A stretch of DNA of 64,000 nt from an uncultured Gemmatimonadales bacterium (GCA_963795085.1 CAWCFX010000004.1:64001-128000); one strand, 5' to 3'. Shown: positions 31,487-63,626, numbered from the stretch's first letter. The notes: generated by a model from the sequence alone, not told the origin. Numbers and translations: made by a program.

Positions 31487-31525
31487 CAGCGAGCGTTCAT
31501 CATGTGAACCGGGAATTCGATTTCT

Positions 31526-31554: not shown

Positions 31555-31640
31555 GAATTGCTCCATCCGTCCCACCCACTTTGCCATCCAGTTGCACCAT
31601 CGAAGGACCGGACGATCCCATCAAGGGGGAGGAAGGTCGC

Positions 31641-34700: not shown

Positions 34701-34714
34701 AAAAGGCGTCTCCC

Positions 34715-46332: not shown

Positions 46333-46361
46333 TTGCAACAGAATATATTATATATTATCTT
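46333..46361 (+). promoter_or_regulatory. Putative kamA sigma70 promoter with an AT-rich operator in its spacer
   Basis: TTGCAA-N17-TATCTT; the region contains ATATATT-ATATATT (near-palindrome AATATATTATATATT), between divergent gntR and kamA. Confidence 0.6.
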
Positions 46362-46434
46362 CCATTCAGTCAACAGCCACCGCGGACCCAATCACGCGGC
46401 GGTTCCTCCTGTTTCCTGTTTCGACGGGTTACCC

Positions 46435-47796
46435 ATGAGCGATTCAACGACGGTCGAAACCATCCAGCAGCCGATCCAGTATCCGCCGGCCCGCGAGTAT
46501 GTGGAACCGGATTGGACCCGGCTGCCCGGATTCCGTGGTGCTTCCCGGGAAGACTGGGAAAGCGCCCTCTGGCAGCGAAAGAACACGGTCAAGAACCTGA
46601 AGGAGCTCAAGGCGGTGCTGGGCCCCCTCCTTCCGGAAACCCTGTTCGCGAGCATCGCTCGCGACCAGGAGGAGCGGGCGACCATGTCCATGCTATTGCC
46701 GCCCCAGATGATCAATACCATGAACACGGAGAATCTCTGGGAGGACCCGGTGCGCCGCTACATGGCGCCTGCCCTGGACGACCGGCGGACTGACTGGCCC
46801 AACCATCCCATGGCCTCGCGGGACAGTCTGCATGAGGCCGAGATGTGGAAAGTGGAAGGCCTCACCCATCGCTATCCCACCAAGGTCCTGGCGGAATTGC
46901 TATCGACCTGTCCCCAGTACTGCGGGCACTGCACCCGCATGGACCTGGTCGGCAATGACGTGCCCCAGGTGGACAAGCTCAAGTTCGTGACGCCCCAGAA
47001 GAGCCGCCACCAGCAGATCCTGGAGTACCTCCGCCAGACGCCCTCGGTGCGGGACGTCGTCGTATCCGGCGGCGATATCGCCAACTTGCCGATCACGGTC
47101 CTGGAGCCGTTCATCAGCGCCCTGCTCGATATTCCGAGCATCCGGGATATTCGGCTGGCCAGCAAGGGCCTGATGGGTATTCCCCAGCATTTCCTGCAGG
47201 AGTCGGTCGTCGATGGGATGGCCCGCCTGGCCAGGAAGGCGATCGAGCGGGGCGTGGACCTGGCGCTGCATACCCACGTCAACCACGCGCAGCAGGTCAC
47301 GCCGCTGGTGGGCCGGGCCGCCCAGAAACTGCTGGAGATCGGCTTCCGCGATGTCCGGAACCAGGGTGTGCTTCTCCGCGGGGTGAACACCACTCCGCAG
47401 GACCTGCTCGAACTCTGCTTCATGCTGCTCGATCACGCCAAGATCATGCCCTACTACTTCTACATGTGCGACATGATTCCGAATTCGGAGCACTGGCGGC
47501 TCGGCGTCTTTGAGGCGCAGCAGCTGCAGCATGACATCATGGGGTACCTCCCCGGTTTTGCCACGCCGCGGATCGTGTGCGACGTGCCCTTCGTCGGCAA
47601 ACGCTGGATTCACCAGCTGGCGGACTACGACCGGGAAAAAGGTATCAGCTACTGGACCAAGAACTACCGCACCGGCATCGAGATGGACGATCCCGAGGCG
47701 CTCAACCGGAAATACGAGTATTACGATCCGATTTACCTCCTGCCGGAATCGGGGCAGGAATGGTGGCAGAAACAGTACCCTCAAGGCGGGAGGTAA
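46435..47796 (+). CDS. kamA: KamA-family radical SAM/PLP aminomutase, probably lysine 2,3-aminomutase
   Basis: GLTHRYP, CPQYCGHCTR (CxxxCxxC), VVSGGD, HVNH, NQGVLLRGVN, PYYFYMCD, CDVPFVGK (PLP Lys). Confidence 0.88.
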   Translation: MSDSTTVETIQQPIQYPPAREYVEPDWTRLPGFRGASREDWESALWQRKNTVKNLKELKAVLGPLLPETLFASIARDQEERATMSMLLPPQMINTMNTENLWEDPVRRYMAPALDDRRTDWPNHPMASRDSLHEAEMWKVEGLTHRYPTKVLAELLSTCPQYCGHCTRMDLVGNDVPQVDKLKFVTPQKSRHQQILEYLRQTPSVRDVVVSGGDIANLPITVLEPFISALLDIPSIRDIRLASKGLMGIPQHFLQESVVDGMARLARKAIERGVDLALHTHVNHAQQVTPLVGRAAQKLLEIGFRDVRNQGVLLRGVNTTPQDLLELCFMLLDHAKIMPYYFYMCDMIPNSEHWRLGVFEAQQLQHDIMGYLPGFATPRIVCDVPFVGKRWIHQLADYDREKGISYWTKNYRTGIEMDDPEALNRKYEYYDPIYLLPESGQEWWQKQYPQGGR

Positions 47797-49548: not shown

Positions 49549-51132
49549 TCACCTCTCCCTTTCTGTTACTACTGTCCTGCTCTGCTCCCGGACAAACTGC
49601 TGCACATAGTACGGGCCGCAGCCGCCCTTTCCGCTCGAACCTGATCCCTTCCACCCCGTGAAGGGCTGGGCTCCGGGCCAGGCGCCGGTGGTGGCACCGC
49701 TCCGCTTATTGGCATAACAGACGCCCGCCTCGATCTCGTCGAAGAAACGGTCTACTTCCTCCGGGTCCTCCGAGAAGATTCCCGCCGTCAAACCATACTC
49801 CGCCTTGTTGCTTTCGGCGATCGCCTGGTCCAGGGAGTCAACCTCGGCGACAGCCAGAAAGGGAACAAACAGCTCCTCGAAAAAGAGCGAGCTGGACAGC
49901 GGCACCCGCGCCACGGTGGGCGCCACGTAGTGGCCCTTGTCGAAGCCTCCGCCTTTCAGGCGATCACCACCGGCCAGGATGGTCCCCTCTTTCTTCGCCT
50001 GCTCCACCGCGGCCTCCCACCGCTTGACCGCTTTCTGGTTGATCACCGGGCCGAAATAGACATCCCGCTCGGTGGGATCGCCCATCTTCATGCCCTTCAT
50101 CTTGTCCAGCAGCTTGGCCACAAACGGCTCAACTATGGTTTTGTGGACATACACGCGGGAGGTGGCGCTGCACTTCTGGTTCTGCAGCCCAAAGGCCGAC
50201 TTCATGACTCCTTCGGCCGCCGCGTCGAGGTCCGCTGACTCCATCACGATCGCCGGGTTCTTGCCCCCCAGCTCAAGCAGGCACGGCTTGATCCACTTCC
50301 GGCTGATCCCCTGGTGAATCCGAAGCCCCACCGCCTTGGACCCGGTGAAGACGATACCGTCCACCCCGGGATGCTGCCATAGCGCATCTCCCATGACCGA
50401 CCCGTGGCCGGACAGGAAGCTGAACACCCCTGTGGGCATCCCGGCGTCGCGATAGACCTCGTACAACTGCCAGCCGGTAAGCGGGGTATCCTCCGCCGGC
50501 TTGTACACCACCGCGTTGCCGGTCATCAGCGCCGCGGAGGACATCCCGGTGGATAGCGCCAACGGGAAGTTGAACGGTGCGATACACGCGAAGACCCCGT
50601 AGGGCCGCTGCACGTCGGTGTTGCGCTCGATCGGCGTCAGATTGGCCATCGGACGGACGAAGCCGTTAGCGTCCTCCACCTGCTGGGCGTAGTAGTCGAT
50701 CAAGTCCGCCGCTTCTTCCGCGTCCCCCATGGACTCCAGCCGGCTCTTGCCCACCTCCAGGCTCATGGTGGCGGCGAGGTCGTACTTCCGGTCCCGGATG
50801 ATCTCCGCGGCGCGCCGGATGATCGCCAGCCGCTCCTGCCAGGGCCGGCGACCCCAGCCCTTCTGGGCTCGGCGGGCGGCCTGGACGGCCAGGTCCACCT
50901 GCTGGGGACCCGCTGCGGCAAAGGTGCCGATCACCACGGACGTGTCGATGGGGGAGGTGTCCACGATGGGATCGCCTCCGCCGCTCCCGGGTACCTCCCG
51001 GCCGTCGATCAGCAGCGGGTAGGTCTTCCCGAGCTGGGACCGCAACCGGGTGAGCGCCTCGTCGAAGCGACGGTGGAAGTCGTCCAGGTCGACGTTGGTG
51101 GAGGTGTAGGTGACTTTCTGGGTAGTAGCCAT
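49549..51132 (-). CDS. Aldehyde dehydrogenase, P5C-dehydrogenase (PruA/RocA)-like
   Basis: IAPFNFP, FTGS, LELGGKN, QNQKCSATSR (catalytic Cys), EELF, YGLTAG, QPFTGWKGSG; RocA-like N-terminus. Confidence 0.88.
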   Translation of the reverse strand: MATTQKVTYTSTNVDLDDFHRRFDEALTRLRSQLGKTYPLLIDGREVPGSGGGDPIVDTSPIDTSVVIGTFAAAGPQQVDLAVQAARRAQKGWGRRPWQERLAIIRRAAEIIRDRKYDLAATMSLEVGKSRLESMGDAEEAADLIDYYAQQVEDANGFVRPMANLTPIERNTDVQRPYGVFACIAPFNFPLALSTGMSSAALMTGNAVVYKPAEDTPLTGWQLYEVYRDAGMPTGVFSFLSGHGSVMGDALWQHPGVDGIVFTGSKAVGLRIHQGISRKWIKPCLLELGGKNPAIVMESADLDAAAEGVMKSAFGLQNQKCSATSRVYVHKTIVEPFVAKLLDKMKGMKMGDPTERDVYFGPVINQKAVKRWEAAVEQAKKEGTILAGGDRLKGGGFDKGHYVAPTVARVPLSSSLFFEELFVPFLAVAEVDSLDQAIAESNKAEYGLTAGIFSEDPEEVDRFFDEIEAGVCYANKRSGATTGAWPGAQPFTGWKGSGSSGKGGCGPYYVQQFVREQSRTVVTERER

Positions 51133-51135
51133 GAT

Positions 51136-52467
51136 TCAGTCCATCGCCTTCAGGGTTTGCGAGAACAGGGCGATCATTTCGTCAATCTGGTCTTCGGTCA
51201 CGATGAATGGAGGCGCCAGCATGACCAGGTCGCCGTTGGTGCCGTCGGCCTGCCCGACATTGGCCCAGACGATCAGGCCGTTCGCCCGGGCGGCGTCGGT
51301 GAAGCGCTCGGCGAATTTCCGGGCCCGCGGCATCGGAGCCTTGGTCGCCTTGTCGGCCACGAACTCGATCCCGGCCAGCAGGCCCCGGCCCCGGACGTCT
51401 CCCACCAGGGGCAAGTCCAGCAGGGCGCGCAATCGCTCATGAAACACCGGCCCGATGACGGCGCAGCGCTCGATCAGTCTGTGCTTCTCCAGGTACTGAA
51501 TGGACGCCAGCCCGGCCGCACACAGCACCGGGTTGTGGGAGAATGTCTGTGCGTGCATGAAGTCGCCGGACCCCGCAACCAGAGCATCCAGGATCCTGCG
51601 GCCGGTCACGATCGCCGACAGCGGAGCGTAGCCGCCGCTGAGCCCCTTGCCCAGGATCAGGATGTCGGGGGTGACGCCGAACTGCTCGATGGCCGTGTAG
51701 GTCCCGGTCCGGCCGGCTCCGACCAGCACCTCATCCGCGATGAACAGGACATTGTGCCGGTCGCAGATGGCCCGGATCTCCTTGAAATACCCCGGCGGCG
51801 GCACCGAGGCACCGGTCGAGGATCCCCCAATCGGCTCGGCGATGAACGCCGCGATGTTCATCGCGCCCTGCTGCAGGATCATGGTCTCCAGCGCCTCGCC
51901 GGTGCAGCCCAGGCATTCCGGCTCGCCGCCGCCGCACTTGCATCGGTACGGATAGGGCGCGGGAATTCGGACGACGTCCACCATCCACTGCCAGTACATC
52001 AGCTTGTAATGCTCCCGGGCCGAAGCGGAGAGGGCCAGCAGGGTGTTGCCATGGTAGGATGGCTGCAGGGCGATGATCTTGTGCTTCGACGGCTGCCCTG
52101 CTTCCACCCAGTACTGCCGGGCCAGCTTGAGCGCCGCCTCCACCGCCTCCGACCCGCTGCTCAGGAAATAGGAATACTCCAGGCCGGGACCGCACCGGCG
52201 GGCCAGTTCCGTGCTCAGGTCCTCCACGGCCTGGTGGGTGAAAGCGGTTCCATTGATGTAGCCGACCCGGCCGGCCTGCGCCGCCATGGCCGCGCCGATC
52301 TCCATGACCCCATGCCCCAGGTTGGCCACGAATGCCCCCCCGGAACCGTCCAGGTACCGCTTTCCGGTCTCGTCGTACAGGCAGCACCCTTCCCCCCGCA
52401 CGATGAGCGGGTGATCCCGCTGAAGGCGGCGGTAGAAAACGCTGGAATTTGGATAGGCGTGTTTCAT
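51136..52467 (-). CDS. Class-III PLP aminotransferase (YodT/BioA-like subgroup)
   Basis: YLDGSGGA.V.NLGHG, SGSEAVE.ALKLARQYW, SYHGNT, DEVLVGAGRTG, LGKGLSGGY, HAQTF. Confidence 0.9.
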   Translation of the reverse strand: MKHAYPNSSVFYRRLQRDHPLIVRGEGCCLYDETGKRYLDGSGGAFVANLGHGVMEIGAAMAAQAGRVGYINGTAFTHQAVEDLSTELARRCGPGLEYSYFLSSGSEAVEAALKLARQYWVEAGQPSKHKIIALQPSYHGNTLLALSASAREHYKLMYWQWMVDVVRIPAPYPYRCKCGGGEPECLGCTGEALETMILQQGAMNIAAFIAEPIGGSSTGASVPPPGYFKEIRAICDRHNVLFIADEVLVGAGRTGTYTAIEQFGVTPDILILGKGLSGGYAPLSAIVTGRRILDALVAGSGDFMHAQTFSHNPVLCAAGLASIQYLEKHRLIERCAVIGPVFHERLRALLDLPLVGDVRGRGLLAGIEFVADKATKAPMPRARKFAERFTDAARANGLIVWANVGQADGTNGDLVMLAPPFIVTEDQIDEMIALFSQTLKAMD

Positions 52468-52534
52468 ATGCTTATTCTTGAGAGACTCTGGACCCGGTTC
52501 GTATTCTAACACCCCTCGCCCTCATCGTCCCGCC

Positions 52535-53782
52535 ATGCGATTTCTCCTGCTCCTGGTGCTCGCGTCTCTCCCCCTCCGGCCGGCGGCGGCTCAGACCCCG
52601 GAACGCGCCCGGGACCTGGGTGTCCCCCTCGATGGCGTTCCCGGCCGCCTCAACGCCATCACCGACGTGCCCGGCGTTCGGGTCGGCCACACCACCATCA
52701 TCCGGGGCAGCGGGGACCTGGTGCCCGGGCAGGGGCCGGTGCGCACCGGGGTCACCGCGGTGTTCCCGACCGGGGACTCCATCCTCCGGCCAGTCTTTGC
52801 GGGGTGGTTCAGCCTCAACGGCAACGGGGAGATGACCGGGACCACCTGGATCGAAGAATACGGAGAACTCCTCTACCCGGTCCTGATCACCAACACCAAC
52901 AGCGTCGGGGTCGCCCGCGACGCGGTCATCGAGTGGGGCCGCGAACGGCTTGCCCCCGACGCCTGGAACTGCTGTCTCCCGGTGGCCGCGGAGACCTGGG
53001 ACGGCGACCTGAACGATATCTTCGGCTTTCATGTCACCCGCGACGATGTATTCAACGCGCTGAACACCGCCCGCGCCGGGCCGGTCGCGGAGGGCAACGT
53101 CGGAGGCGGGACGGGCATGCAGTGTCTCGGGTTCAAGGGAGGCATCGGCACGGCGTCGCGGCGGGTGGGAATCGCCAGCGACACTTTTACGGTTGGTGTC
53201 CTGGTCCAGTGCAACTTCGGCAGCCGGAACCAGCTTCGAGTCGCCGGCATTCCAGTCGGCCGGGAAATCACGGCGCCTCCCGACTGCTACGACTCAGACA
53301 GCCCCCTCGACTCTGACCGGGCGGCGCAGCGCTGCCCGCGCGAGCAGGGCCGGGCGCCCGCCCCGCGTGAGCCCGATGGGTACCTGCCAGCCAGCTACGA
53401 GGATGACCACGGCTCCATCATCGTGGTGATTGCCACCGATGCTCCCCTGCTTCCCCACCAGCTCAAGCGCATCGCCAAACGCGCCTCGCTCGGCGTCGCC
53501 CGCGCCGGCGGCGTCGCCGGCAGCGGGTCAGGGGACATATTCCTCGCCTTTTCCACCGTCCCCGCCGAGTCCTCCGATTCGAGCATCCTGACCCAGCGCA
53601 TGGTGCACGACCGCCGCATCAATACCCTGTACGAAGCCACCGTTCAGGCCACCGAAGAGTCAATTCTCAACGCCATGCTCGCCGCCCGCACCATGACGGG
53701 CGCCAACTACTACCGCGTTACCGCCTTGCCGCACGAGGAGTTGCGGTCGGTGCTGGCGCGCTACAACCGGCTCACCCGTTGA
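52535..53782 (+). CDS. Secreted DmpA/BapA-family (P1/S58) aminopeptidase
   Basis: Signal peptide; NAITDVPGVRVGH, RTGVT, LNGNGEMTG, EGNVGGGTGM, autoprocessing site G|SIIVVIATDAP, GSGDIF. Confidence 0.9.
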   Translation: MRFLLLLVLASLPLRPAAAQTPERARDLGVPLDGVPGRLNAITDVPGVRVGHTTIIRGSGDLVPGQGPVRTGVTAVFPTGDSILRPVFAGWFSLNGNGEMTGTTWIEEYGELLYPVLITNTNSVGVARDAVIEWGRERLAPDAWNCCLPVAAETWDGDLNDIFGFHVTRDDVFNALNTARAGPVAEGNVGGGTGMQCLGFKGGIGTASRRVGIASDTFTVGVLVQCNFGSRNQLRVAGIPVGREITAPPDCYDSDSPLDSDRAAQRCPREQGRAPAPREPDGYLPASYEDDHGSIIVVIATDAPLLPHQLKRIAKRASLGVARAGGVAGSGSGDIFLAFSTVPAESSDSSILTQRMVHDRRINTLYEATVQATEESILNAMLAARTMTGANYYRVTALPHEELRSVLARYNRLTR

Positions 53783-53897: not shown

Positions 53898-55048
53898 CTA
53901 CAGGCCGGATCCTTCAATAGCTTCGAGAAACGAGCGGTCCCACGCCGCGGGCACGCTCTCCCGGGGAGAGTAGGGTCCCGGCTCGTAGGCCAGCGAAGAG
54001 ATTCCCGCGAAGCTCAATTCGGTGATATGCCAGTCCTGGCGATTGGTCGTGTCCCAGAACTCCACGGCATCGTCCGGGTGGAAGTCCGGCCGCGCGAACG
54101 CGTCGGGGTGGAACAGCCACTCGCACACCACCCGGGTGCGCCCCGCGGACTGAGGCCAGAGCGTGTAGTACACCACGTAGTCGGGGTGGATGCTCAACAT
54201 CAGGTTCGGAAAGATGGTGTAGTAGTACGCCCGCTGCAGATCCTCGCCCGACAGGTCACCCAGCGGCAGGCCGCAGGCACGGCCGCTCATGGTCATGCTG
54301 CGGTTGGGCGCCGAGATAACCATGTAGCCGCCGAGCACATGCCCCTCGGTCAGGTCGTTGGCGCCGCTGGTGTACGGCATCAGGCTGGAAAGCTCCGGGT
54401 GGATCACCGGGCAGTGCAGGCATTCCGAATAGTTCTGAAAAACCAGTTTCCAGTTGGAGTTGACGTCGTACTCGATCCGCCGGCCGGCCTTGAGCCGGGG
54501 CAGCGCAAAACGGCTGAACCGTCCAACCAGCGGCGCCAGCGCGACCTCGAACGGTTCAGGCTCGGCCCCCAGGTGGAGGAAGATGAAGCCCTCCCACTCG
54601 TGTACCGCGACCGGCTTGAGCGGGTAATCGGCCTTGGCGAAATCCACCGCTTCCTGCATGTGCGGCGCCCCGACCAGCCGGCCATCGGTCGCATAGGTCC
54701 AGGCGTGGTAGGGACACTGGATGGTCTCGCCGAAGCGGCCCTGCGCGGATTCGCAGATCCGGGTGCCACGGTGCCGGCACGTATTGTAAAAGGCGCGCAC
54801 CTGTCCGCCCTTGCGGTCGCGGAGAACAATGATGCTCTCCTTGCCGATGGCCTGCAGGAAATATTCTCCCGGCTCCGGATGGCGGCGGACCGGCCCACGC
54901 AGAACCAGTGCCTGGTCAGCAGGTACTCCTGCTCCCGCACGAAGACATCCGGCGAGGTGTAGTAATGCCCCGGCATGGTTCGGGCACCCGGCTGGAACGA
55001 CTTCACGGTGGAGACGAACGATCCCATGGTATGGTTCTCCTCGGTCAT
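53898..55048 (-). pseudogene. Rieske non-heme iron oxygenase alpha subunit (choline/carnitine/betaine monooxygenase-like), with a single-base frameshift near 54877
   Basis: N-terminus MTEENH...YYTSPDVF..E...HWFCVGRSAAI is in one frame; PEPGEYF...CRHRG...CPYHAW...NWK...ECLHC..IH...QD is in another. ATCCGGAG lacks one C relative to the in-frame ATCCCGGAG. Confidence 0.85.
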
Positions 55049-56634
55049 GAATCCTTGAGCATCGCTTTCGCGGCCAGCCGGCCCGCACCACCGACGATCC
55101 CGCCGCCAGGATGGGTACCGGATCCACCCAGGTAGAGCCGGCGCACCGGGGTCCGGTGATGGCCCCACCCCGGGACCGGCCGCATGAAGAGGATCTGGTC
55201 CAGTCCCATCTCGCCGTGGTACAGGCTGCCTTCGGTAACCGAATAACGCTCCGCCAGGTCCGCGGGCGTCAGCACCTGCCTGGCCAGGACGGCGCCTTTC
55301 AGGTTCGGAGCCCGCTCGGCGAGGGATGCCACGACCAGGTCACCCAGCGACTCCCGGGCGGCGGCGTCCCAGCCATCCTTCCTGCGGTAGGGAGCATACT
55401 GCATCCAGACCGACATGACGTGCCGGCCCGCTGGAGCCAGCGACGGATCGGCCAGCGACGGAATGACCGCCTCGATGTACGGCCGTCGGGAGGTGCGGCC
55501 ATGCTTGGCGTCGTCATAGGCCTGCTCGAGATAGTCCAGGCTCGGACTCAGCGAAATGACGCCGTGCAGAGCGTCCTCGCCCGAGACTCCAGTGAAATGC
55601 GGTAGTTCACCCAGAGCGAGATTCACCTTGGCCGCGACGCCCCGGTAGCGGATGTTGGCGAGGGCCCGCAGGTATTCGGGGGCCAGGTTAGCCGGGTCCA
55701 CCATGGCCAGCATGGTCTGCCGCGGGTCCACCGTGGAGACAACCTGGCGCGCCGCGATATCGTCGCCGCCCTGGAGGACAACCCCCGTGACCCCACCGCC
55801 GTCGGTGCGCACCCGCTCGACCCGGGCTCCGGTCCGTACCTCGACACCCAGGTGAACGGCCGCCTCGCGCAGCAAGGCACTCATCGTGCCCGCACCGCCT
55901 CGGCGAAGGGAGCCGCCGCGAAAGACGCCGGCCGGGTTGCCTACCCGGTGATGCAGCATGACGAATGCGGTGCCCGCGGAGCGGGGACCCTGCAGAATCC
56001 CGGTGATCCCCGCGGCGCCCAGGGCGCCTTTCAACCCGTCATACTCGAACCAGTCGTCCAGCAGCTCCGCCACCGACATGGGAAGGACCCGGAGGAACTC
56101 GACCATGTCCTCCTTGCCCATGCCCCGGACCCGGCGTCCCAAGCCAAGCAACTGCCAGAGGTCGGCGGGCCGGGAGCTGGTCAACTGGGGCGGCGTCAGG
56201 CCATAGGCATACTGCAGGAAGCCGGTCAGCTTCTGAGCCAGGCGGCAGAAGTCTGCCCACTTCCCGGCATCGGCGGAGGAATGGCGGCGCAGCTCGGCCG
56301 CGGTCGGGTCGATTCCGCGGCGAAGCAACAGGGCCCCATCGTCGGTAAGCGCGAGGCAGGAAACGTCGGGCTCCAGCAGAGACTGCTGCCCGGTGCCAAG
56401 CGACAGGTCCTCCGCGAGAGCCGGGTCGAGCCAGCCAGACTGATGCAGGGCGGTATCCACCCGGAACCCGGGGTGGAACTCCTCGGTGGCGTGTACTCCG
56501 CCCACCTCCGGGCGAGCCTCGACCACCAGCACCCGTTTCCCGGCCCGGGCCAGGTAAGACGCCGCCACCAGGCCGTTGTGCCCGGCTCCGATCACGACGA
56601 CGTCGTAGGATGAACTTGTCATGCGATCAGACAC
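55045..56634 (-). CDS. Phytoene-dehydrogenase-like (PYROXD2-like) FAD oxidoreductase, copy 2
   Basis: IGAGHNGL, GPRSAGTA, AYDDAK.G, TP.DL, GSLYHGE, GSGTHPGGG. Confidence 0.88.
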   Translation of the reverse strand: MSDRMTSSSYDVVVIGAGHNGLVAASYLARAGKRVLVVEARPEVGGVHATEEFHPGFRVDTALHQSGWLDPALAEDLSLGTGQQSLLEPDVSCLALTDDGALLLRRGIDPTAAELRRHSSADAGKWADFCRLAQKLTGFLQYAYGLTPPQLTSSRPADLWQLLGLGRRVRGMGKEDMVEFLRVLPMSVAELLDDWFEYDGLKGALGAAGITGILQGPRSAGTAFVMLHHRVGNPAGVFRGGSLRRGGAGTMSALLREAAVHLGVEVRTGARVERVRTDGGGVTGVVLQGGDDIAARQVVSTVDPRQTMLAMVDPANLAPEYLRALANIRYRGVAAKVNLALGELPHFTGVSGEDALHGVISLSPSLDYLEQAYDDAKHGRTSRRPYIEAVIPSLADPSLAPAGRHVMSVWMQYAPYRRKDGWDAAARESLGDLVVASLAERAPNLKGAVLARQVLTPADLAERYSVTEGSLYHGEMGLDQILFMRPVPGWGHHRTPVRRLYLGGSGTHPGGGIVGGAGRLAAKAMLKDS

Positions 56635-56657
56635 CCCGGTGAGGACGATTCACACGC

Positions 56658-56692
56658 CACTCGGCACTCGGCACTCTGCACTCTCCCCTCTC
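56658..56692 (+). repeat. Degenerate heptamer tandem repeat (CACTCGG-like)
   Basis: cactcgg-cactcgg-cactctg-cactctc-ccctctc. Confidence 0.75.
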
Positions 56693-56696
56693 CCCC

Positions 56697-58277
56697 TCAC
56701 CGCTTCAGAATCTCCATCGCCGCCAGCCGCCCCGAGGCTCCCATGATCCCGCCGCCGGGATGGGTCCCTGCGCCACACTGGTAGTAGTTACGGATCGGCG
56801 TGGTGTAGCGAGACCAGGCTGGGGCGGGCCGCAGAAAGAAGAGCTGGTGCAGCGCCAGCTCACCCTGAAAAATGTTCCCCTCGCTCAAGCCCGTGATGTC
56901 CTCGATGTCTCGCGGCGTTATGACCTGGCGATGCCGGATGATCGACTTGATGTTGGGGGCGTGCTCGGCGAGCGTGTCGATGACGGCGTCGCCGAACGCT
57001 TCTCGCTTCTGGTCGGTCCAGCCGCCGTTGAGGTGGTAAGGCGCGTACTGGACAAAAATGGACATCACGTGCTTGCCTGGCGGCGCCATCCCCGGATCGA
57101 TCATCGATGGGATGATGATGTCCATGTAGGGCTGGCGGGAGAACTCGCCGTACTTCGCGTCGTCGTAGGCCCGCTCGATGTAATCGATGCTGGGGCTGAT
57201 CGAAATTGCCCCCCGAAGATGGGGGCCGTCGCCGGGCATGCAGGTGAAATCTGGCAGGGCATCCAGCGCCAGGTTCACCTTGCCGGAGGACCCCCGGAAC
57301 TTGAAACGCCGGATCGCCTCGACCAGGTCGTCGGGCAGCTGTTTCGGATCCACCATCCGGGTAAACGTCTGCCGGGGGTCCAGCCCGGATACCACCGTTC
57401 TGGCCCGGATCTCGTCGCCGTTCTCAAGTGCCACCCCGATGGCCTTCCCCCCCCGCACGATGACCTGCGCCACCGGTGCGTTCACCCGTATTTCAGCCCC
57501 GAAACCCCGGGCGGCCGACGCGATCGACTCGCTGATCGCGCCCGTACCGCCCTTGGCGAAGCCCCAGGCCCGGAAGGCCCCGTCGATCTCGCCCATGTAG
57601 TGATGCAGGAGCACGTAGGCCGTACCCGGCGACCGCGGCCCCAGGAACGTCCCGATGATACCGCTGGCTGACTTGGTGGCTTTGAGCGGTTCGCATTCGA
57701 ACCATTCGTCGAGAAAGTCCGAGGCGCTCATCGTCATCAGCTTGTAGAGCGCGTGGAAATGCTCTTCCCCCAGCGAGGAGAAGTGCCGACCCAGCTTGCC
57801 CAGCGACACCAGCTCCCGGGGATCCAGACTCGTCGGATCGGGGGGCGCCATGCCGAGGATCGGACGTACCGCCATCGCCATATGGTGCATCAGCCGGCCG
57901 AACTCGTCGTAGGCCTCGGCGTCACGGGGCGAGTGCCGAACCAGCTCTCGCCGGGTGAGATCGTGGTCGGCCCAGGAGGCCAGGTAATCGCCGTTGGGCA
58001 GGGGGGTCAGGGTGCTTTCCAGCGGAAGGACCTGCAGCCCGTGGGCCGGCAGATCCAGATCACGGATGATCTCCGGCCGCAGCAGGCTCACCACGTAGGA
58101 AAACACCGAAAACTTGTAGCCCGGGAAAATCTCCTCCGTCACCGCCGCGCCACCAACCAGGTGCCGGCGTTCCAGTACCAGCACCCGCTGCCCGGCGCGC
58201 GCCAGGTAGGCCGCGGTGACCAGGCCGTTATGGCCGCCCCCGATGATGACCGCATCGTACTGATTGGTGGAGGTCAT
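56697..58277 (-). CDS. Phytoene-dehydrogenase-like (PYROXD2-like) FAD oxidoreductase, copy 1
   Basis: IGGGHNGL, GGAAVTEE, SY.VSLLRP, GPRSPGTAYVLLHHYMG, GNIFQGE, GAGTHPGGGIMG. Confidence 0.9.
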   Translation of the reverse strand: MTSTNQYDAVIIGGGHNGLVTAAYLARAGQRVLVLERRHLVGGAAVTEEIFPGYKFSVFSYVVSLLRPEIIRDLDLPAHGLQVLPLESTLTPLPNGDYLASWADHDLTRRELVRHSPRDAEAYDEFGRLMHHMAMAVRPILGMAPPDPTSLDPRELVSLGKLGRHFSSLGEEHFHALYKLMTMSASDFLDEWFECEPLKATKSASGIIGTFLGPRSPGTAYVLLHHYMGEIDGAFRAWGFAKGGTGAISESIASAARGFGAEIRVNAPVAQVIVRGGKAIGVALENGDEIRARTVVSGLDPRQTFTRMVDPKQLPDDLVEAIRRFKFRGSSGKVNLALDALPDFTCMPGDGPHLRGAISISPSIDYIERAYDDAKYGEFSRQPYMDIIIPSMIDPGMAPPGKHVMSIFVQYAPYHLNGGWTDQKREAFGDAVIDTLAEHAPNIKSIIRHRQVITPRDIEDITGLSEGNIFQGELALHQLFFLRPAPAWSRYTTPIRNYYQCGAGTHPGGGIMGASGRLAAMEILKR

Positions 58278-59464
58278 CCCTGGGCTCGTTTCCGGGGGGG
58301 GTCGAAAAACGGGGTCTTCACCACTGTCGCGTCCGCCAGTTTCCTGCGATGCTCGACCGTGACCTCCATCTGCACCGGGGTGCCGGCCCCGCCAAACGCC
58401 GATTCCACGTGGGCCAGCGCGATGTAGCGCTTGAGAATCGGGGACCAGCAACCTGACGACGCGTAGCCGACCTGTACCCCACCCGAATAGAGAGGGACGC
58501 TGGTCCGCCAGGCCACCGTCGGGAGCTTCGGCGGCAAACCCCGCTCGGCGTACAGGCGCTCCAGCGATTCCCAGTTGACGTCAATGCCCACGAACTGCCA
58601 TGCCGGGCCCCGGGCGCTTTCCGCCCGGAGCGCCTGCTGCCCGACGAACGGCGCCTTGTCGAGCTTCACGGTCCATCCCAGGTTCAGTTCGAACGGAGTC
58701 GACTTCTGGTCCTCGATCAGGGCATGACGCGCGGAGACGTAGTCCACCTCGATCATCAGGAGGCCGGCTTCGATCCGCGCCACATCGAGGCCAAGGATGC
58801 CGGACGGCACGATTCCGTACCGGCCGCCGACCTTCATCAGGGAGTCCCACAACGCCGCCCCCAGGGGGGCGTCCACCCAGATCTCGAAACCCAGGTCTCC
58901 AGTGTAGCCGGTGCGGGACACGGTGACCGGGATATCGCGAATCACCCCCCGGGTCAGCCGAAAGTACTTGAGCTGCGAGACGTCCACGCCCGCCGCCAGC
59001 AGAATGTCGCGCGACAGCGGCCCCTGCAGGCTGAGGGCGCCTACCCGGTCCGAGATATCGGTGATTGCCACGTCGAGGCCCACCGCGTTCTGGTGGAGCC
59101 AGCGCAGGTTGGGATCCGCCGATGTCAGTCGGAACACCTGCTCATCCAGCCGGCTCACCGTGCCGTCGTCGATGACCTTGCCATGGCTGTCGCACCAGGG
59201 CGAGTACGCCACCTGGTTGATCCGGAGCTTGGTCACGTCACGGGGCAGCGTCCGGTCCAGCAGGCGCTCAGCGTCCCGGCCTTCGATCAGGTACTTGTAA
59301 AGCGGCGACACGTCGATGAGGGCGGCCGAGTTCCGGATGGCCGCGTACTCCCGGTCGTGCAGGAGATCGTAGGAGCTGGCCACCACGTGGCCGGCCCAGC
59401 GGCGCCAGTTCTGCCCTTCCATCAGCGGGGCAGTGCGAGAATGGAACGGCGTGGTCTTGAGCAT
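58274..59464 (-). CDS. GcvT-like folate-binding aminomethyltransferase family protein
   Basis: EY.AIRN...IDVSPL, VIDDGTV, LSLQGP, SRTGYTGDLGFE, ARIEAG, PFFDP; no gcvH or gcvP nearby. Confidence 0.9.
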   Translation of the reverse strand: MLKTTPFHSRTAPLMEGQNWRRWAGHVVASSYDLLHDREYAAIRNSAALIDVSPLYKYLIEGRDAERLLDRTLPRDVTKLRINQVAYSPWCDSHGKVIDDGTVSRLDEQVFRLTSADPNLRWLHQNAVGLDVAITDISDRVGALSLQGPLSRDILLAAGVDVSQLKYFRLTRGVIRDIPVTVSRTGYTGDLGFEIWVDAPLGAALWDSLMKVGGRYGIVPSGILGLDVARIEAGLLMIEVDYVSARHALIEDQKSTPFELNLGWTVKLDKAPFVGQQALRAESARGPAWQFVGIDVNWESLERLYAERGLPPKLPTVAWRTSVPLYSGGVQVGYASSGCWSPILKRYIALAHVESAFGGAGTPVQMEVTVEHRRKLADATVVKTPFFDPPRKRAQG

Positions 59465-60258
59465 CAGCCTCTCGTGGATATCGCGGTGTCGTAGCCCAGC
59501 TGCCGTGAGATGGCCTCGCCAGCCTGTCGAAGGGAAGCCACCAGCAACCCGATCCGTTCCGGCGGGATCCGGACACTGGGCCCCCCGAGGCTGATCGCGG
59601 CTACCACTTCGCCATCGTGGTTGCGTACCGGCACCCCGATCGCCGTGTAGCCGTCCTCCAGTTCACCGACCGCGGTGGCGTAGCCCTGCTCCCGCACTTT
59701 CTTGAGCTCCTGACGGAGCGCAGTGATGCCGATAATCGTCCGCCGCGCCGGGCGGGCCAGCGGCAGCCGCAAACGCCCGCTTCGCTCGGATTCCGGGAGA
59801 GAAGCAAGCAGCACCTTCCCGGTGGACGTCGCATGGGCGGGCCAGCGAGTCCCGACCGACGGACTCGCGTGCAGCCACTTTCGGCTGTGGACTTCCTCGA
59901 CGATCAAAACATCGGCGTCCACCAGGACTTCGAGGGTGGCCGTCTCGGCCGACAAGCTCGCGAGTTGCGCCAGCGTATCCCGGCTGACCCGCCGCAAGTC
60001 ATTGGCGCGAAGCGCCCGCCCCCCGATCGAGATGGCCTCGGGTCCCAGCCGGTAGGCCTCGGTCTCCGGGTTGCGGGCAACCAGGCCTTCGTGGGCCAGC
60101 GCGGTCAGCAGGCGATAGGCCGTGGTCTTGTTCAGTCCCGACGCCCGGGCCATCTCGGTGAGTCCCCACTCCGGCTTCGCGTCGGTGAAGATCTTGAGAA
60201 GGGACAGCGCGCGGCGGACCGCCTGGGTCCCCGAATATGCATCGGGAGGTGGATTCAT
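59464..60258 (-). CDS. IclR-family transcriptional regulator
   Basis: RRALSLL, GL.KTTAYRLL..L, ATSTGKVLLA, VREQGYA, VVAAISLGGP. Confidence 0.92.
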   Translation of the reverse strand: MNPPPDAYSGTQAVRRALSLLKIFTDAKPEWGLTEMARASGLNKTTAYRLLTALAHEGLVARNPETEAYRLGPEAISIGGRALRANDLRRVSRDTLAQLASLSAETATLEVLVDADVLIVEEVHSRKWLHASPSVGTRWPAHATSTGKVLLASLPESERSGRLRLPLARPARRTIIGITALRQELKKVREQGYATAVGELEDGYTAIGVPVRNHDGEVVAAISLGGPSVRIPPERIGLLVASLRQAGEAISRQLGYDTAISTRG

Positions 60259-60267
60259 GAAATGCCA

Positions 60268-60312
60268 GTTCAGTATATGAACCACGTTACCGGGCAACGG
60301 CCTTCCTGTCAA
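60268..60312 (-). promoter_or_regulatory. Putative sigma70 promoter and IclR operator of the iclR/gcvT-like operon
   Basis: Minus strand TTGACA-N17-TAACGT; palindrome GTTCA-N5-TGAAC (60268-60282) lies over the predicted start site. Confidence 0.65.
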
Positions 60313-60327
60313 CGGTGACGGGAGAAG

Positions 60328-62013
60328 CTATCGGCCCTGGCCCCGGTAAACGACGCGGCCGCCCGCAATGGTCATCAACACCCGGGTACCTCCCACCGCC
60401 TCGGGAGCTACCATGAAGAGATCCCGCTCGAGGAGAACCAGATCGGCCAGCTTGCCGACCGACACCGATCCGGTGAGACTGTCCGCGAACCGGGCATGCG
60501 CTCCATTGATGGTGTAGGCCAGCAGTAGCGCCTGGAGACCAGCTCGCTCTTCCGGTATCCACGCCGTTCCCCGGCCTTCATCGAGTCCGCGCCGTGTCAT
60601 CGCCACCTGGATGGCCTCCAGCGGGTTCATGGTACTCACCGACCAGTCGCTGCCGGCCACCACCGTGGCGCCGCTCTGAATCATACTTTGGATCGGATAC
60701 AGCCAGCGCGACCGGGCCGGGCCCAGCACCGGAATGGTCAGTTCAGTTATATACGGATCGGCGGAGGCCCAGAAGGGCTGGAAATTGGCGATGACCCGAA
60801 GGGCCTTGAAACGGGGGATATCCCCCGGGTCGATCAGTTCCAGGTGCGCAATCTGGTGCCGGGAATCCCGGATCCCATTGACCGACCGGGCCCGAGCAAA
60901 GGCATCGAGGGCCATCCGGATGGCCCGGTCGCCGATGGCGTGAACATGGACCTGGATTCCGGCCCGGTCCAGGCGGGCCACCAGGTCGTCGAGTTCTTCC
61001 TGCGGCAGGGTGGGTTCCCCCCGTGAACCGGGCGAGCCAAGGTATGGCTCCAGCAGCGCGGCGGACCGGGCTTCGATCACCCCATCCAGAAAGATCTTGG
61101 CGCTGTTCGCGCTCAGCCGCTCGCCACGGAACCGGTCCCGCACTCGAACCAGCCCTTCCACATCGGGAGGCCCGGCGTCCAGGTCCAGTTGCTGGGCAAC
61201 CGTGATCCGGACCGGCAGGCGGCCCAGGGAATCCATGAGGCGATACGCGTCCAGCATGGCGGAGTCGCCGTTGGCGTCGATCAACGCGGTGATGCCGAAG
61301 CTCGAGGCAAGAGCAAAGGCTCGGTCGAACCCCTCGATGTAATCGTCGGTGGTGTACTCGGGAAGCAGGCGCTCCACCAGCCGCATCGCCGACTCGCGGA
61401 GTGCGCCGGTAGGCGCGCCGGTGGCATCACGCTCGATCCGTCCTCCTGGCGGGTCCCGGGTTTCGCGGCCCAGGCCGGCCAACTGTATCGCCTTCGAATT
61501 GATCCACGCGGAGTGGCCGTCGGCCGCGGTCAGAAAGACGGGGCGGTTCGCGACGGCCTGGTCCAGCAGCGTCGCCTTCGGATTGGCCGCGGGAAACATC
61601 GGCAGCGCCCATCCGGTACCCCGGACCCATGGTGCATCGGGCCTGGCTCGGGCGCATTCCCCAACCGTCGCCAGGGCCTGCTGGGGAGTAGAATCTCGGC
61701 TCAGATCGCATTCGCCGAGTTCAACTCCGGAATAGGGGTGCACATGGCTGTCGACAAAGCCCGGCAACAGCATCCTCCCCCGTCCGTCCACCACTTCCGT
61801 GGATGTCCCGATGTGCCGCCGAATCCCGCTGTCAGGGCCGGCGAACACGATCCGCCCGTCACGAATCGCCACTGAACCGGACGCGGTTCCCGGCGACGCA
61901 ACGGGATCGCCGCTGAAGATGGCCGCGTTTCGAATAACCAGGTCGGCCGCCGGCTCCGCTCCTGCGCCGCATCCGGTCAGAAGCAGCAGGGCGGCGAGCC
62001 GGCGGCGGTTCAT
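60328..62013 (-). CDS. Amidohydrolase-3 (YtcJ/NfdA-like) lipoprotein
   Basis: Lipobox LTGC; PGFVDSHVH, DGHSAW.NS, KIFLDG, HAIGD, HLE, GSDW, GKLADLV. Confidence 0.88.
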   Translation of the reverse strand: MNRRRLAALLLLTGCGAGAEPAADLVIRNAAIFSGDPVASPGTASGSVAIRDGRIVFAGPDSGIRRHIGTSTEVVDGRGRMLLPGFVDSHVHPYSGVELGECDLSRDSTPQQALATVGECARARPDAPWVRGTGWALPMFPAANPKATLLDQAVANRPVFLTAADGHSAWINSKAIQLAGLGRETRDPPGGRIERDATGAPTGALRESAMRLVERLLPEYTTDDYIEGFDRAFALASSFGITALIDANGDSAMLDAYRLMDSLGRLPVRITVAQQLDLDAGPPDVEGLVRVRDRFRGERLSANSAKIFLDGVIEARSAALLEPYLGSPGSRGEPTLPQEELDDLVARLDRAGIQVHVHAIGDRAIRMALDAFARARSVNGIRDSRHQIAHLELIDPGDIPRFKALRVIANFQPFWASADPYITELTIPVLGPARSRWLYPIQSMIQSGATVVAGSDWSVSTMNPLEAIQVAMTRRGLDEGRGTAWIPEERAGLQALLLAYTINGAHARFADSLTGSVSVGKLADLVLLERDLFMVAPEAVGGTRVLMTIAGGRVVYRGQGR

Positions 62014-63626
62014 CGCGTTCCGGCCCGGAATTTCCACTCCGGCAGGTCACTCAGCCAGGAATACGGATTAATGGTGACCGGCTCCAGTCTCCGGGTAACC
62101 GCGGCAATGTTGGTCGGCGCAAACAGGAAGACTGCCGGCACATCGGCATTCAACGTATCGAGTACGGCGCGGTAGAGTCGTCCTGCCTCCGCGGGCTGGA
62201 CGCTTCGGGAGGCAGCCGTCAGCAGAGAGTCCAGCGAAGGATTGTGGTAGTGGCCGTAGTTCAGGTCCGACCACCCCTGGCGACTCCACTGATCGGCCAG
62301 GCCCCGGGGACTGGGCTCGTCCAGCCATGCCCCGACGAACGCCTCGAAGTTTCCTGCCGCGATCCGCTGTTGCATGACCGGAAAATCCACAAGGGTCACG
62401 ACACCGGCGACGCCGGTGGCCTTCCATTGGGCCTGGACCGCCTCGGCTGCGCGGCGCCGGGCGGGACTCGTCGAGGGAACCAGGATCTCCAGCCGGAGCG
62501 GCCGCCCCGCGCGGGTGCGCATGCCGTCGGCCCCCCGGATCCAGCCGGCCGCATCGAAGGCCGCCGCCGCCGCCGCCGTGTCGTATGGCAGCGGCTTCAC
62601 ACTGCTGTCCCAGATCCAGAGCAACTGCGAGATCGGCCCCGGCGGGACCTTCGTCTCCGGCCCGAACACGGCGCGGGCGACGGTGGTCCGGTCAATCGAC
62701 TGCACCAGGGCTCGCCGGAGATTCCGGTTGGAGAGAATCGCATCCGAGGCGCGCGGACGGTCACCGGCCAACCGGAAGCCGATCAGGCCGTAGGAGGCCG
62801 AGGGGTAGGGCACCAGCCGGAAGGCCGAGTCGTGGGCCAGTTGTTCGGCACCGGCCAGGGCGGCCGTCTCCAGCAGGTCGGCTTCGTGGCTCAGGAGCAG
62901 GTTGGCGGCGGCCTCCGGATCGCCGGCGAACCGCCACGCCACGCGGCGGATGTCTGGCGGGAGCGCCACGGTCGTGTCCGCGATCAAGGTCAGGGACTGG
63001 CCCCGCTGCCAACTGGCAAAACGGTAGGGACCGCTGCCTATCAGGCGCCCGCCAGTCGTATCGTCAGCCCAGGCAGCACGGGGACCTGCCTGCTCCCACA
63101 CGTGCCGGGGAATGATCCGCACGTGGTAAGTGGCGTCATACAGCTGTTCAGCATAGGGATGCGTGAAGCGCACCAGCACCGTGGCACTGTCCGCCGCCTC
63201 TACCGAGGCGATACTCGCCAACTGGGATCGGGGCGCCGCATCGAGGACCGAGTCGCGGAACACGTCAAAGGAGTAGACCACGTCGCTGGCAGTCACCGGC
63301 TGGCCGTCATGCCACCGGGCGCCGGAGCGCAGGGTAAACCGCCAGGTGAGCGAATCCACCCGTGCCCACTTGGTCGCCAGACCTGGGGCATAAGCCGTTT
63401 CGTCCATGGTAGGCCGGCGCGGAAGCAGATCAGCGAGCCGTTCGTAAATCAAATCTCCCACATCGCGCCCCACCGACTCGTACGTCAGCGGCGGGAAGAT
63501 GCTGGATGGTTCCCCGACTGCGGCGACCACCAGGGTTCCGCAGGTGGCACAGGAAGGCGTTCGGTCGCAGCCGGCCAAGAACAGGAGGATCCCCGGCAAG
63601 GCCAGGCTAATACGGAAAGTGCGCAT
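62010..63626 (-). CDS. Peptide ABC transporter substrate-binding lipoprotein (family 5)
   Basis: Lipobox LAGC; WHDGQPVTASDV.YS, IGSGPY, RRAL..IDR. Confidence 0.9.
   Translation of the reverse strand: MRTFRISLALPGILLFLAGCDRTPSCATCGTLVVAAVGEPSSIFPPLTYESVGRDVGDLIYERLADLLPRRPTMDETAYAPGLATKWARVDSLTWRFTLRSGARWHDGQPVTASDVVYSFDVFRDSVLDAAPRSQLASIASVEAADSATVLVRFTHPYAEQLYDATYHVRIIPRHVWEQAGPRAAWADDTTGGRLIGSGPYRFASWQRGQSLTLIADTTVALPPDIRRVAWRFAGDPEAAANLLLSHEADLLETAALAGAEQLAHDSAFRLVPYPSASYGLIGFRLAGDRPRASDAILSNRNLRRALVQSIDRTTVARAVFGPETKVPPGPISQLLWIWDSSVKPLPYDTAAAAAAFDAAGWIRGADGMRTRAGRPLRLEILVPSTSPARRRAAEAVQAQWKATGVAGVVTLVDFPVMQQRIAAGNFEAFVGAWLDEPSPRGLADQWSRQGWSDLNYGHYHNPSLDSLLTAASRSVQPAEAGRLYRAVLDTLNADVPAVFLFAPTNIAAVTRRLEPVTINPYSWLSDLPEWKFRAGTR

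Follow-up and report, generated by a model that had tools for sequence, protein, structure and literature searches.

What reaction is carried out by a bacterial operon that places two relatives of PYROXD2, a human mitochondrial flavoprotein with strong metabolite-genetics signals, beside a folate-binding protein and a Rieske oxygenase? The question is raised by five co-directional genes on the minus strand of a 64,000-nucleotide (nt) stretch of DNA from an uncultured Gemmatimonadales bacterium (GCA_963795085.1 CAWCFX010000004.1:64001-128000), called the window below, which has a G+C content of 66%. Open reading frames (ORFs) and domain searches gave the gene order IclR-type regulator, GcvT-like protein, flavoprotein Fl1, flavoprotein Fl2, and Rieske alpha subunit. 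We propose that these genes form an IclR-controlled catabolic operon for the stepwise, folate-linked oxidative N-demethylation of a methylated amine, an assignment that we regard as probable and still well short of certain. The genes, in window coordinates, are as follows.

59464-60258 (ORF to 60312), minus strand: IclR-family regulator (HTH_IclR, 1.1e-15; IclR_C, 2.4e-37)
58274-59464, minus strand: stand-alone GcvT-like folate-binding protein of 396 amino acids (GCV_T, 5.5e-54; GCV_T_C, 3.2e-13)
56697-58277, minus strand: Fl1, a PYROXD2-like flavin adenine dinucleotide (FAD) flavoprotein of 526 amino acids counted from MTSTNQYD (full-length PF01593)
55045-56634, minus strand: Fl2, a diverged paralogue of Fl1, 529 amino acids (full-length PF01593)
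53898-55048, minus strand: Rieske oxygenase alpha subunit of the Stc2/CntA/GbcA type, with a 1-nt frameshift at 54877/54878 (PF00355, Rieske; PF00848, Ring_hydroxyl_A)

The Fl1, Fl2, and GcvT-Like Genes Form a Conserved Module

A sequence-only reading of the window had named the regulator, the GcvT-like protein, the two paralogous flavoproteins, and the Rieske alpha subunit, and Pfam searches found every one of these genes and domains. Its description of the stop and start codons as mostly overlapping applies to three of the four junctions: the IclR and GcvT-like genes overlap by 1 nt, the GcvT/Fl1 and Fl2/Rieske pairs each have a common ATGA, and Fl1 and Fl2 are separated by a 62-nt gap.

Gene linkage was counted in 80 loci, the best of at least 595 species-genome matches to Fl1. 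Fl1 is 65-85% identical in 79 of these loci; the remaining one (L063) is tabulated at 46%, yet contains a partial Fl1 copy at 70%. The 120 best database proteins are 79-91% identical to Fl1. According to record titles, the matches span Gemmatimonadota, Acidobacteriota, Chloroflexota, Beta- and Gammaproteobacteria, and Myxococcota-like "Deltaproteobacteria," with further matches in Eisenbacteria, Thermodesulfobacteriota, and Binatia. Downstream sequence of at least 1.7 kb is available in 70 loci, and in 69 of them Fl2 comes directly after Fl1 (L023 is the exception). Among the 70 loci with at least 1.4 kb of upstream sequence, the GcvT-like gene is adjacent to Fl1 on the same strand in 34 and divergently in 19 (53 in all), and it occurs elsewhere in the locus in 8, giving 61. 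Flanking sequence reaches at least 5 kb upstream and 4.5 kb downstream in 44 loci, and 38 of them hold the complete triad. The triad, for which the sequence-only reading had proposed a synteny check, is strongly conserved. A Rieske gene accompanies 22 of these 44 fully flanked loci; it is of the window type in 13 and only of a distant type (26-31% identical) in 9, and the best model for the distant type is likewise GbcA.

Matches at an E value of 1e-100 or better were obtained in 97 of 201 sampled genomes of the phylum, a tally that includes two (G182 and G057) flagged as unpublished; about 58 of the 97 show at least 66% identity. Many genomes of the phylum (e.g., G035, G108, and G084) carry a single-copy, ~50%-identical Fl1 homologue, either instead of or beside the 66-85% ortholog.

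The module also occurs on plasmids. A tblastn search returned 37 plasmid records, and the four inspected, all from cultured alphaproteobacterial carriers, were those of Fuscovulum ytuae, Rhizobium sp. SL42, Parasedimentitalea marina, and Shinella zoogloeoides. In each, genes for a TetR protein, Fl1 (50-52% identical), Fl2, and a protein annotated as "aminomethyltransferase family protein" stand side by side. Within ~10 kb of this row are an aminotransferase gene, the genes of an ABC transporter whose solute-binding protein is polyamine-type or "extracellular," and one or more genes for a Rieske alpha subunit. A 679-amino acid NADH:flavin oxidoreductase lies near the module in two of the four. 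Beside the module on the Rhizobium sp. SL42 plasmid (L087, 4242-8754) is a moc-like set composed of a fatty-acid-desaturase-family protein, a MocE-type ferredoxin, an FAD oxidoreductase, a PanB-like hydroxymethyltransferase, and an inositol 2-dehydrogenase; this set is a further cluster of the demethylation type and probably unrelated to the module. The module is real and conserved, and a literature search, with most subscription journals outside its reach, found no paper that characterizes it or assigns a reaction to PYROXD2.

The GcvT-Like Protein Resembles the Folate-Binding Half of Trimethylamine N-Oxide Demethylase

The best match of the GcvT-like protein is the C-terminal half of trimethylamine N-oxide (TMAO) demethylase, both in NCBIfam (NF053776, 2.8e-79, model positions 386-762 of 763) and in the PDB (9q59, residues 407-785, profile E value 6.6e-77). 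The C-terminal half of this enzyme (Tdm; PDB 9q59 and 9q5a) binds tetrahydrofolate (THF) and captures the formaldehyde produced by the other half. The likeness is confined to that half: the N-terminal catalytic half of Tdm is absent here, and two flavoproteins stand in its place. The next relatives are T-proteins, the sarcosine oxidase alpha subunit (SoxA), DMGO, and DMGDH. E values against the folate domains of the DMGO, DMGDH, and Sox enzymes run from 1e-25 to 1e-28 in single-sequence searches and from ~1e-38 to 1e-44 with profiles.

By score, the protein ranks as TMAO demethylase (267 bits, against a full-length cut-off of 1100), GcvT (206 bits with NF001567, cut-off 300; 139 bits with TIGR00528, cut-off 236), DmdA (118 bits), LigM (59 bits), and DesA (48 bits). 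It is therefore assigned neither to the GcvT equivalogs nor to full-length TMAO demethylase. Two motifs, DDG and RTGYTGDLGxE, are invariant in 46 GcvT-like orthologs and align with their counterparts in Tdm and in a T-protein; both probably have a role in folate binding. Neither gcvH nor gcvP adjoins the operon, as the sequence-only reading had remarked, and gcvH sits on another contig (C6). A second GcvT-family gene is present in the genome on contig C1.

Six of the nine loci without a GcvT-like gene near the Fl1-Fl2 pair (L037, L043, L053, L056, L068, and L074, from Pyrinomonadaceae and other Acidobacteriota) carry a Pterin_bind (PF00809) gene slightly upstream, with L037:2317-3186 (2e-86) as the representative. 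This gene may simply be folP or may encode another folate-binding partner.

Fl1 and Fl2 Are Bacterial Relatives of PYROXD2

Both flavoproteins match Amino_oxidase (PF01593) at ~1e-21. The DAO family (PF01266) matches only residues 66-102 of Fl1 (ORF numbering) and 11-98 of Fl2, the dinucleotide-binding part at the N terminus, which does not amount to DAO-family membership. The best named model for each is the beta-carotene ketolase CrtO (NF045689), at 311 and 265 bits against a cut-off of 1000, and crtI_fam (TIGR02734) gave ~116 bits against a cut-off of 238. The flavoproteins thus differ from CrtI/CrtO enzymes, which supply their nearest solved folds and best-named sequence models, in falling below all cut-offs, in having no adjoining carotenoid genes, and in keeping one-carbon and amine enzymes as partners. 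The sequence-only reading had stressed that two phytoene-dehydrogenase-like paralogues occur here without carotenoid genes, and the search of the 3.89-Mb, 93%-complete genome agrees, as no phytoene/squalene synthase (PF00494) was found in it.

In pairwise alignments, Fl1 is 37-41% identical over 96-100% of its length to proteins named PYROXD2 by their sources (from Macrostomum, Lagenidium, Perkinsus, Paramuricea, and a bird), with E values from 1e-80 to 1e-122. Fl2 is more distant, at 31-35% identity. Across 61 bacterial Fl1 sequences and six fused or eukaryotic relatives, 71 columns are invariant. Fl2 retains the FAD core but varies at many of the positions that are invariant in Fl1, such as S60, Y61, H225-Y227, W238, and N468 of Fl1, and is therefore either differently specialized or a noncatalytic partner. 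Fl1, which is highly conserved (67-85% identity between phyla), is presumed to be the catalytic subunit. By full-length similarity, eukaryotic PYROXD2, an orphan mitochondrial flavoprotein, ranks among the known systems nearest to the module; we know of no GcvT-like partner of animal PYROXD2.

Human genetics ties PYROXD2 to methylated amines. In one study, the missense variant rs2147896 is reported to account for ~50% of the variance in plasma levels of N6-methyllysine and for 48% in the case of N6,N6-dimethyllysine, and associations with N-methylpipecolate and trimethyllysine are reported as well (PMC8109053). Another study links PYROXD2 to urinary trimethylamine (PMC3930510). An activity on free methyl-lysine has long been described: epsilon-alkyllysinase, discovered in 1963-64, converts free epsilon-N-methyl-lysine to lysine and formaldehyde, as recounted in PMC3936616.

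Fusion Proteins Join the Flavoprotein to One-Carbon Domains

Fusions were sought by a search for longer relatives of Fl1 and by a follow-up search for GFA domains combined with a flavoprotein. Two proteins (P0128 and P0129) consist of a complete N-terminal GCV_T domain and a complete C-terminal Fl1-like flavoprotein. They are 62% identical to each other, and both are 49% identical to Fl1 over 99% of its length. The linker of P0129 is clean and ~25 residues long, and the middle of P0128 appears to be out of frame.

A second kind of fusion places a GFA domain (PF04828, glutathione-dependent formaldehyde-activating) at the N terminus of a PYROXD2-like flavoprotein. It was found in seven clusters (P0134, P0136, P0147-P0150, and P0152), two of them from marine eukaryote transcriptomes (EukProt, MMETSP), where they are single transcripts. 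Taken together, the GcvT and GFA fusions point to the release of formaldehyde, and hence to oxidative demethylation. The GFA link is a hint and not proof. The catalytic role of Gfa itself has been questioned, and to our knowledge the GFA-flavoprotein architecture has not been described.

Tandem Fl1-Fl2 proteins also occur, with P0121 alone covering both halves nearly completely. Ten other candidates (P0122-P0127, P0138, P0140, P0143, and P0145) were dropped as fusions because their matches were patchy and likely to be gene-calling artifacts.

The Rieske Oxygenase Belongs with Quaternary-Amine Demethylases and Is Frameshifted in This Assembly

In the assembly, the N-terminal 56 codons of the Rieske gene (55048-54881) and the remainder (54878-53898) occupy different frames. 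The first part begins at an ATG that overlaps the Fl2 stop codon, and the Rieske and catalytic domains lie in the second frame. The sequence-only reading missed the frameshift. The two parts share one frame in all 14 related loci that hold both. Furthermore, a 239-nt contig (X1) from an unrelated public metagenome run covers positions 54708-54945 with two mismatches and one extra base at 54877/8, which restores the frame and gives a length equal to that of the orthologs. A near-identical strain therefore has the gene in unbroken form. The frameshift in this assembly may reflect either faulty assembly or a recent mutation.

Relationships were judged from the intact ortholog in locus L027. Its best PDB relatives are 3n0q, 3vca (which we take to be the stachydrine demethylase Stc2), 4qup ("monooxygenase; demethylase"), and CntA (6y8j), and the best NCBIfam model is GbcA (NF058607), at 200-232 bits against a cut-off of 670. 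The domains and nearest relatives therefore agree with the earlier placement of this protein among the quaternary-amine demethylases. The window protein shares the Rieske domain and the alpha catalytic domain with Stc2, CntA, and GbcA; unlike them, it falls far below the GbcA cut-off, is frameshifted, and comes from a genome in which no GbcB/CntB-type reductase domain was found. A second Rieske alpha paralogue, 34% identical, is present in the same genome (C1:607539-608390).

A Proposed Route for Stepwise N-Demethylation

We infer the chemistry, the complex, the folate dependence, and the class of substrate from the domains, conserved linkage, fusions, and sequence relationships described above. 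In the proposed route, the Rieske oxygenase would remove the first methyl group from a quaternary (trimethylammonio) group. Fl1 with Fl2, probably as a heteromer, would then oxidize the N-methyl C-N bonds of the tertiary and secondary amines to an iminium and so yield formaldehyde. The GcvT-like protein would bind THF and trap the iminium or formaldehyde carbon as 5,10-methylene-THF, as in TMAO demethylase, DMGO, and sarcosine oxidase. The primary amine left over would probably pass to a class-III aminotransferase and an aldehyde dehydrogenase.

This route has known counterparts in DMGO (1pj5), DMGDH and SARDH (4pab, 5l46), and SoxABDG (2gag, 1vrq), all of which couple a flavoprotein to a GcvT-like folate domain that takes up the one-carbon unit. 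The organization resembles that of SoxABDG, with separate subunits and a second, diverged flavoprotein-like partner. The scaffold is different: Fl1 and Fl2 fall in the CrtI/CrtO/PYROXD2 branch of PF01593 and not in the DAO family, and no SoxD- or SoxG-like genes accompany them. The module is therefore not a member of the DMGO or SoxABDG families. If the assignment is correct, it would add a third flavoprotein scaffold for folate-coupled demethylation and an unrecognized route of methylated-amine turnover in soil Gemmatimonadota, Acidobacteriota, Chloroflexota, and Proteobacteria.

The sequence-only reading had envisaged two flavoproteins and the GcvT-like protein as a split folate-linked demethylase and had called for the complex to be modeled. 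For Fl1 with the GcvT-like protein, the predicted complex had a median score of 0.56 (runs of 0.56, 0.17, and 0.73), and the best of three controls scored 0.00. Contacts agreed between runs in at least 89% of cases, and the predicted local distance difference test (pLDDT) value of the partner was at least 92. In a calibration that holds only roughly here, own alignments having been used, 116 of 157 solved complexes passed the mark, as did 2 of 215 mismatches. Scores of 0.60 or less took in only 18 of the 157 solved complexes together with both of the passing mismatches, and a pass at that level is more often wrong than right unless the pairing is likely beforehand. Here it is likely beforehand, because of the gene linkage and the fusions. 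The result lends the complex weak support and is nonetheless counted as minor. With synteny, the GcvT and GFA fusions, the closest solved relatives, and the identity to PYROXD2, this weak pass speaks for the split-demethylase idea.

Several observations weigh against the proposed function. Loci were picked by Fl1 similarity and come from related genomes, and the linkage counts are therefore not independent. The GcvT-like gene is absent within reach in 9 of the 70 loci, and half of the fully flanked loci have no Rieske gene. Clean GcvT-flavoprotein fusions amount to two sequences, and a search of 1.84 billion representatives with P0129 gave no match spanning both halves among the best 150, so that this fusion is rare. 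The only solved sequence relatives of Fl1 and Fl2 are CrtI-type enzymes (E value 1e-19). In an AlphaFold 2 model of Fl1 (pLDDT 82), the nearest folds are likewise those of the CrtI-family C-C desaturases 4rep and 4dgk, followed by NicA2, putrescine oxidase, MAO, and other flavin amine oxidases. The family matches of all five proteins lie under the curated equivalog cut-offs. As written in this assembly, the Rieske gene is not functional, and the first demethylation step may therefore be missing here unless the frameshift is an assembly error. The GbcB/CntB-type reductase domain (PF00175, NAD_binding_1) had no match in the 3.89-Mb assembly, which extends genome-wide the sequence-only reading's remark that no reductase adjoins the Rieske gene. 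Finally, the 34 families most often met in the flanks of the 80 loci did not include purU, folD, or glyA, as judged from crude ORF calling and a scan of 28 representatives.

A bolder version would have every member of the PYROXD2 family demethylate free N-methyl amines with release of formaldehyde, a long-unassigned activity of the "epsilon-alkyllysinase" type, with the bacterial operon as a four-part machine that passes flavoprotein electrons to the reductase-less Rieske protein and every methyl carbon to folate. Electrons from the dimethyl and monomethyl steps would then drive the first demethylation of the trimethylammonium group by the Rieske enzyme. We consider this version speculative and rather unlikely. 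The bacterial linkage to a folate one-carbon catcher and the GFA fusions in eukaryotes make it directly testable whether PYROXD2 demethylates free N-methyl amines.

Candidate Substrates and Alternative Functions

Which methylated amine would be the substrate? Recurring neighbors of the module include PotF-like ABC transporters, aminotransferases, aldehyde dehydrogenases, and hydrolases from more than one superfamily, and APC amino-acid/polyamine permeases lie in ~20 acidobacterial loci of the 80. These neighbors fit methylated omega-amino compounds, methylated polyamines, and methylated basic amino acids about equally; the omega-amino candidates are the betaines of beta-alanine, γ-aminobutyric acid (GABA), and 5-aminovalerate.

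The sequence-only reading had favored N6-methyl-lysines, on account of a KamA-family gene nearby. In its full form, this explanation has the module demethylate N6-mono-, di-, and trimethyl-lysine from digested proteins and feed the lysine to a KamA-family pathway. It draws on PMC8109053, where the strongest associations of human PYROXD2 variants are with N6-methyllysine, N6,N6-dimethyllysine, trimethyllysine, and N-methylpipecolate, and on the demethylation of free epsilon-N-methyl-lysine known since 1963 (PMC3936616). The APC-family permeases would also suit it, as would the peptidases, oligopeptide-type binding protein, and amino-acid permeases in which the window is rich; these surroundings lend the idea some local color, no more. 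The KamA-family gene itself (46333-47796) scores 173 bits against a TIGR00238 cut-off of 199 and lies ~6 kb from the operon, with oppositely oriented genes between. None of the 80 related loci contains a counterpart, and the annotations of the four plasmid loci inspected list no such gene. We accordingly rejected the KamA linkage as a conserved feature, and the methyl-lysine/KamA account is not supported by synteny. The omega-type class-III aminotransferases and polyamine-type ABC transporters, moreover, fit omega-amino compounds or polyamines at least as well. N6-methyl-lysines thus stand as one candidate substrate among several, on the strength of human genetics (PMC8109053) and of the peptide-catabolic surroundings, and as a full explanation the methyl-lysine route is unlikely.

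We judge equally unlikely an explanation in which the flavoproteins oxidize a nonmethylated amine, such as a polyamine or an omega-amino acid, and the GcvT-like protein is a true aminomethyltransferase that works on an aminomethyl intermediate and releases ammonia and methylene-THF. PF01593 and the fold neighbors of Fl1 do include putrescine oxidase, MAO, and NicA2, and the flanks repeatedly hold polyamine-type ABC transporters, aminotransferases, and aldehyde dehydrogenases. Set against this, the recurring Rieske enzymes belong to the quaternary-amine demethylase type, the GFA fusions suggest free formaldehyde, the GcvT-like protein is nearest the formaldehyde-capturing half of TMAO demethylase, and no H-protein-like carrier adjoins it.

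Demethylation at oxygen or sulfur, either of aryl methyl ethers as by LigM and VanA or of compounds like dimethylsulfoniopropionate (DMSP) as by DmdA, would suit an IclR protein of the aromatic type, whose top models are PcaR, PcaU, and PobR. The GcvT-like protein has weak matches to LigM, DesA, and DmdA, and the Fuscovulum cluster contains a DMSP-lyase-family cupin. Those matches are far below the ones to TMAO demethylase and GcvT given above, the Rieske protein has closer relatives in Stc2, CntA, and GbcA than among aromatic oxygenases, and no ring-cleavage genes lie nearby. In addition, THF-dependent O- and S-demethylases, as far as we know, need no flavoprotein. This explanation is very unlikely. 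The least probable of all, hardly credible in our estimation, makes Fl1 and Fl2 CrtI/CrtO-type desaturases, ketolases, or isomerases acting on a carotenoid or lipid, with the GcvT-like and Rieske proteins unrelated; although CrtO is their best NCBIfam model and 4rep and 4dgk are the nearest solved folds, it was rejected because the CrtO and crtI_fam cut-offs are missed widely and no phytoene/squalene synthase was found in the genome, and it also leaves the cross-phylum GcvT linkage and the GcvT and GFA fusions unexplained.

A Candidate Operator Precedes the IclR Gene

Control of the proposed demethylation operon would lie with its first gene. The protein has both HTH_IclR and IclR_C and so belongs to the IclR family, with every NCBIfam equivalog under its cut-off. 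ATG 60258 is the likelier start, in preference to the ORF end at 60312. An IclR ortholog occupies the equivalent position in 3 of the 80 loci. The 69-nt gap between the stop codon of the upstream amidohydrolase gene and the IclR start contains promoter-like hexamers followed by a palindrome.

60284-60312, minus strand: promoter-like hexamers TTGACA (60312-60307) and TAACGT (60289-60284) with a 17-nt spacer, read from the sequence
60268-60282, no strand assigned: 15-bp palindrome GTTCA-N5-TGAAC (GTTCAGTATATGAAC), a candidate IclR operator between the -10 hexamer and the IclR start

The sequence-only reading had placed one promoter-operator in front of the operon. The palindrome pattern has two matches in the window, against 0.02 expected from shuffling, and the stretch is conserved in a looser form upstream of the IclR orthologs in L015, L019, and L027; the exact pattern is found in the window's own locus and in none of the other 84. 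A scan for consensus promoters accepted no site in the scanned region, and TTGACA-17-TAACGT was rejected because its -10 hexamer is weak. The terminator scan gave a single terminator-like site, inside Fl1, which is within chance.

The second exact copy of the palindrome (GTTCATCATGTGAAC) is at 31495-31509. On one side of it lies a DAO-family oxidase gene (30110-31486) that weakly matches aminophosphonate oxidoreductase and L-pipecolate oxidase, and on the other a TonB-dependent receptor/SusD-like pair (31581-36031). The IclR protein of the operon might control both sites.

Neighboring Genes in the Window

Two flanking features may contribute further steps to the proposed pathway.

60328-62037, minus strand: Amidohydro_3 amidohydrolase (family match), directly upstream of IclR, a possible accessory step (weak)
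49549-52512, minus strand: aldehyde dehydrogenase (49549-51132) and class-III aminotransferase (51136-52512), possible downstream steps (weak)

Homologues of the amidohydrolase are encoded in the Fuscovulum plasmid cluster (36% identical) and in L024 (33%) and are absent from the other 79 loci. By tblastn, the aminotransferase lies beside the module in one of the 80 loci (L014).

The segment 43827-49155 encodes a GntR regulator, two coenzyme A-transferase subunits, the below-cut-off KamA-family radical SAM aminomutase, and, with its start 4 nt beyond the aminomutase gene, a class-III aminotransferase. These genes resemble a set for beta-amino-acid catabolism that is distinct from the proposed demethylation operon. 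On the minus strand at 36505-43609 are an amidohydrolase fused to a PD40/S9 peptidase (1086 amino acids) and a PD40/DPPIV-like protein (843 amino acids). These two large genes are followed by an APC permease nearest to Glu/GABA antiporters, and an S58 peptidase is encoded at 52478-53782. The large peptidase-type genes, the permease, and the S58 peptidase together mark the region as a peptide-degradation neighborhood.

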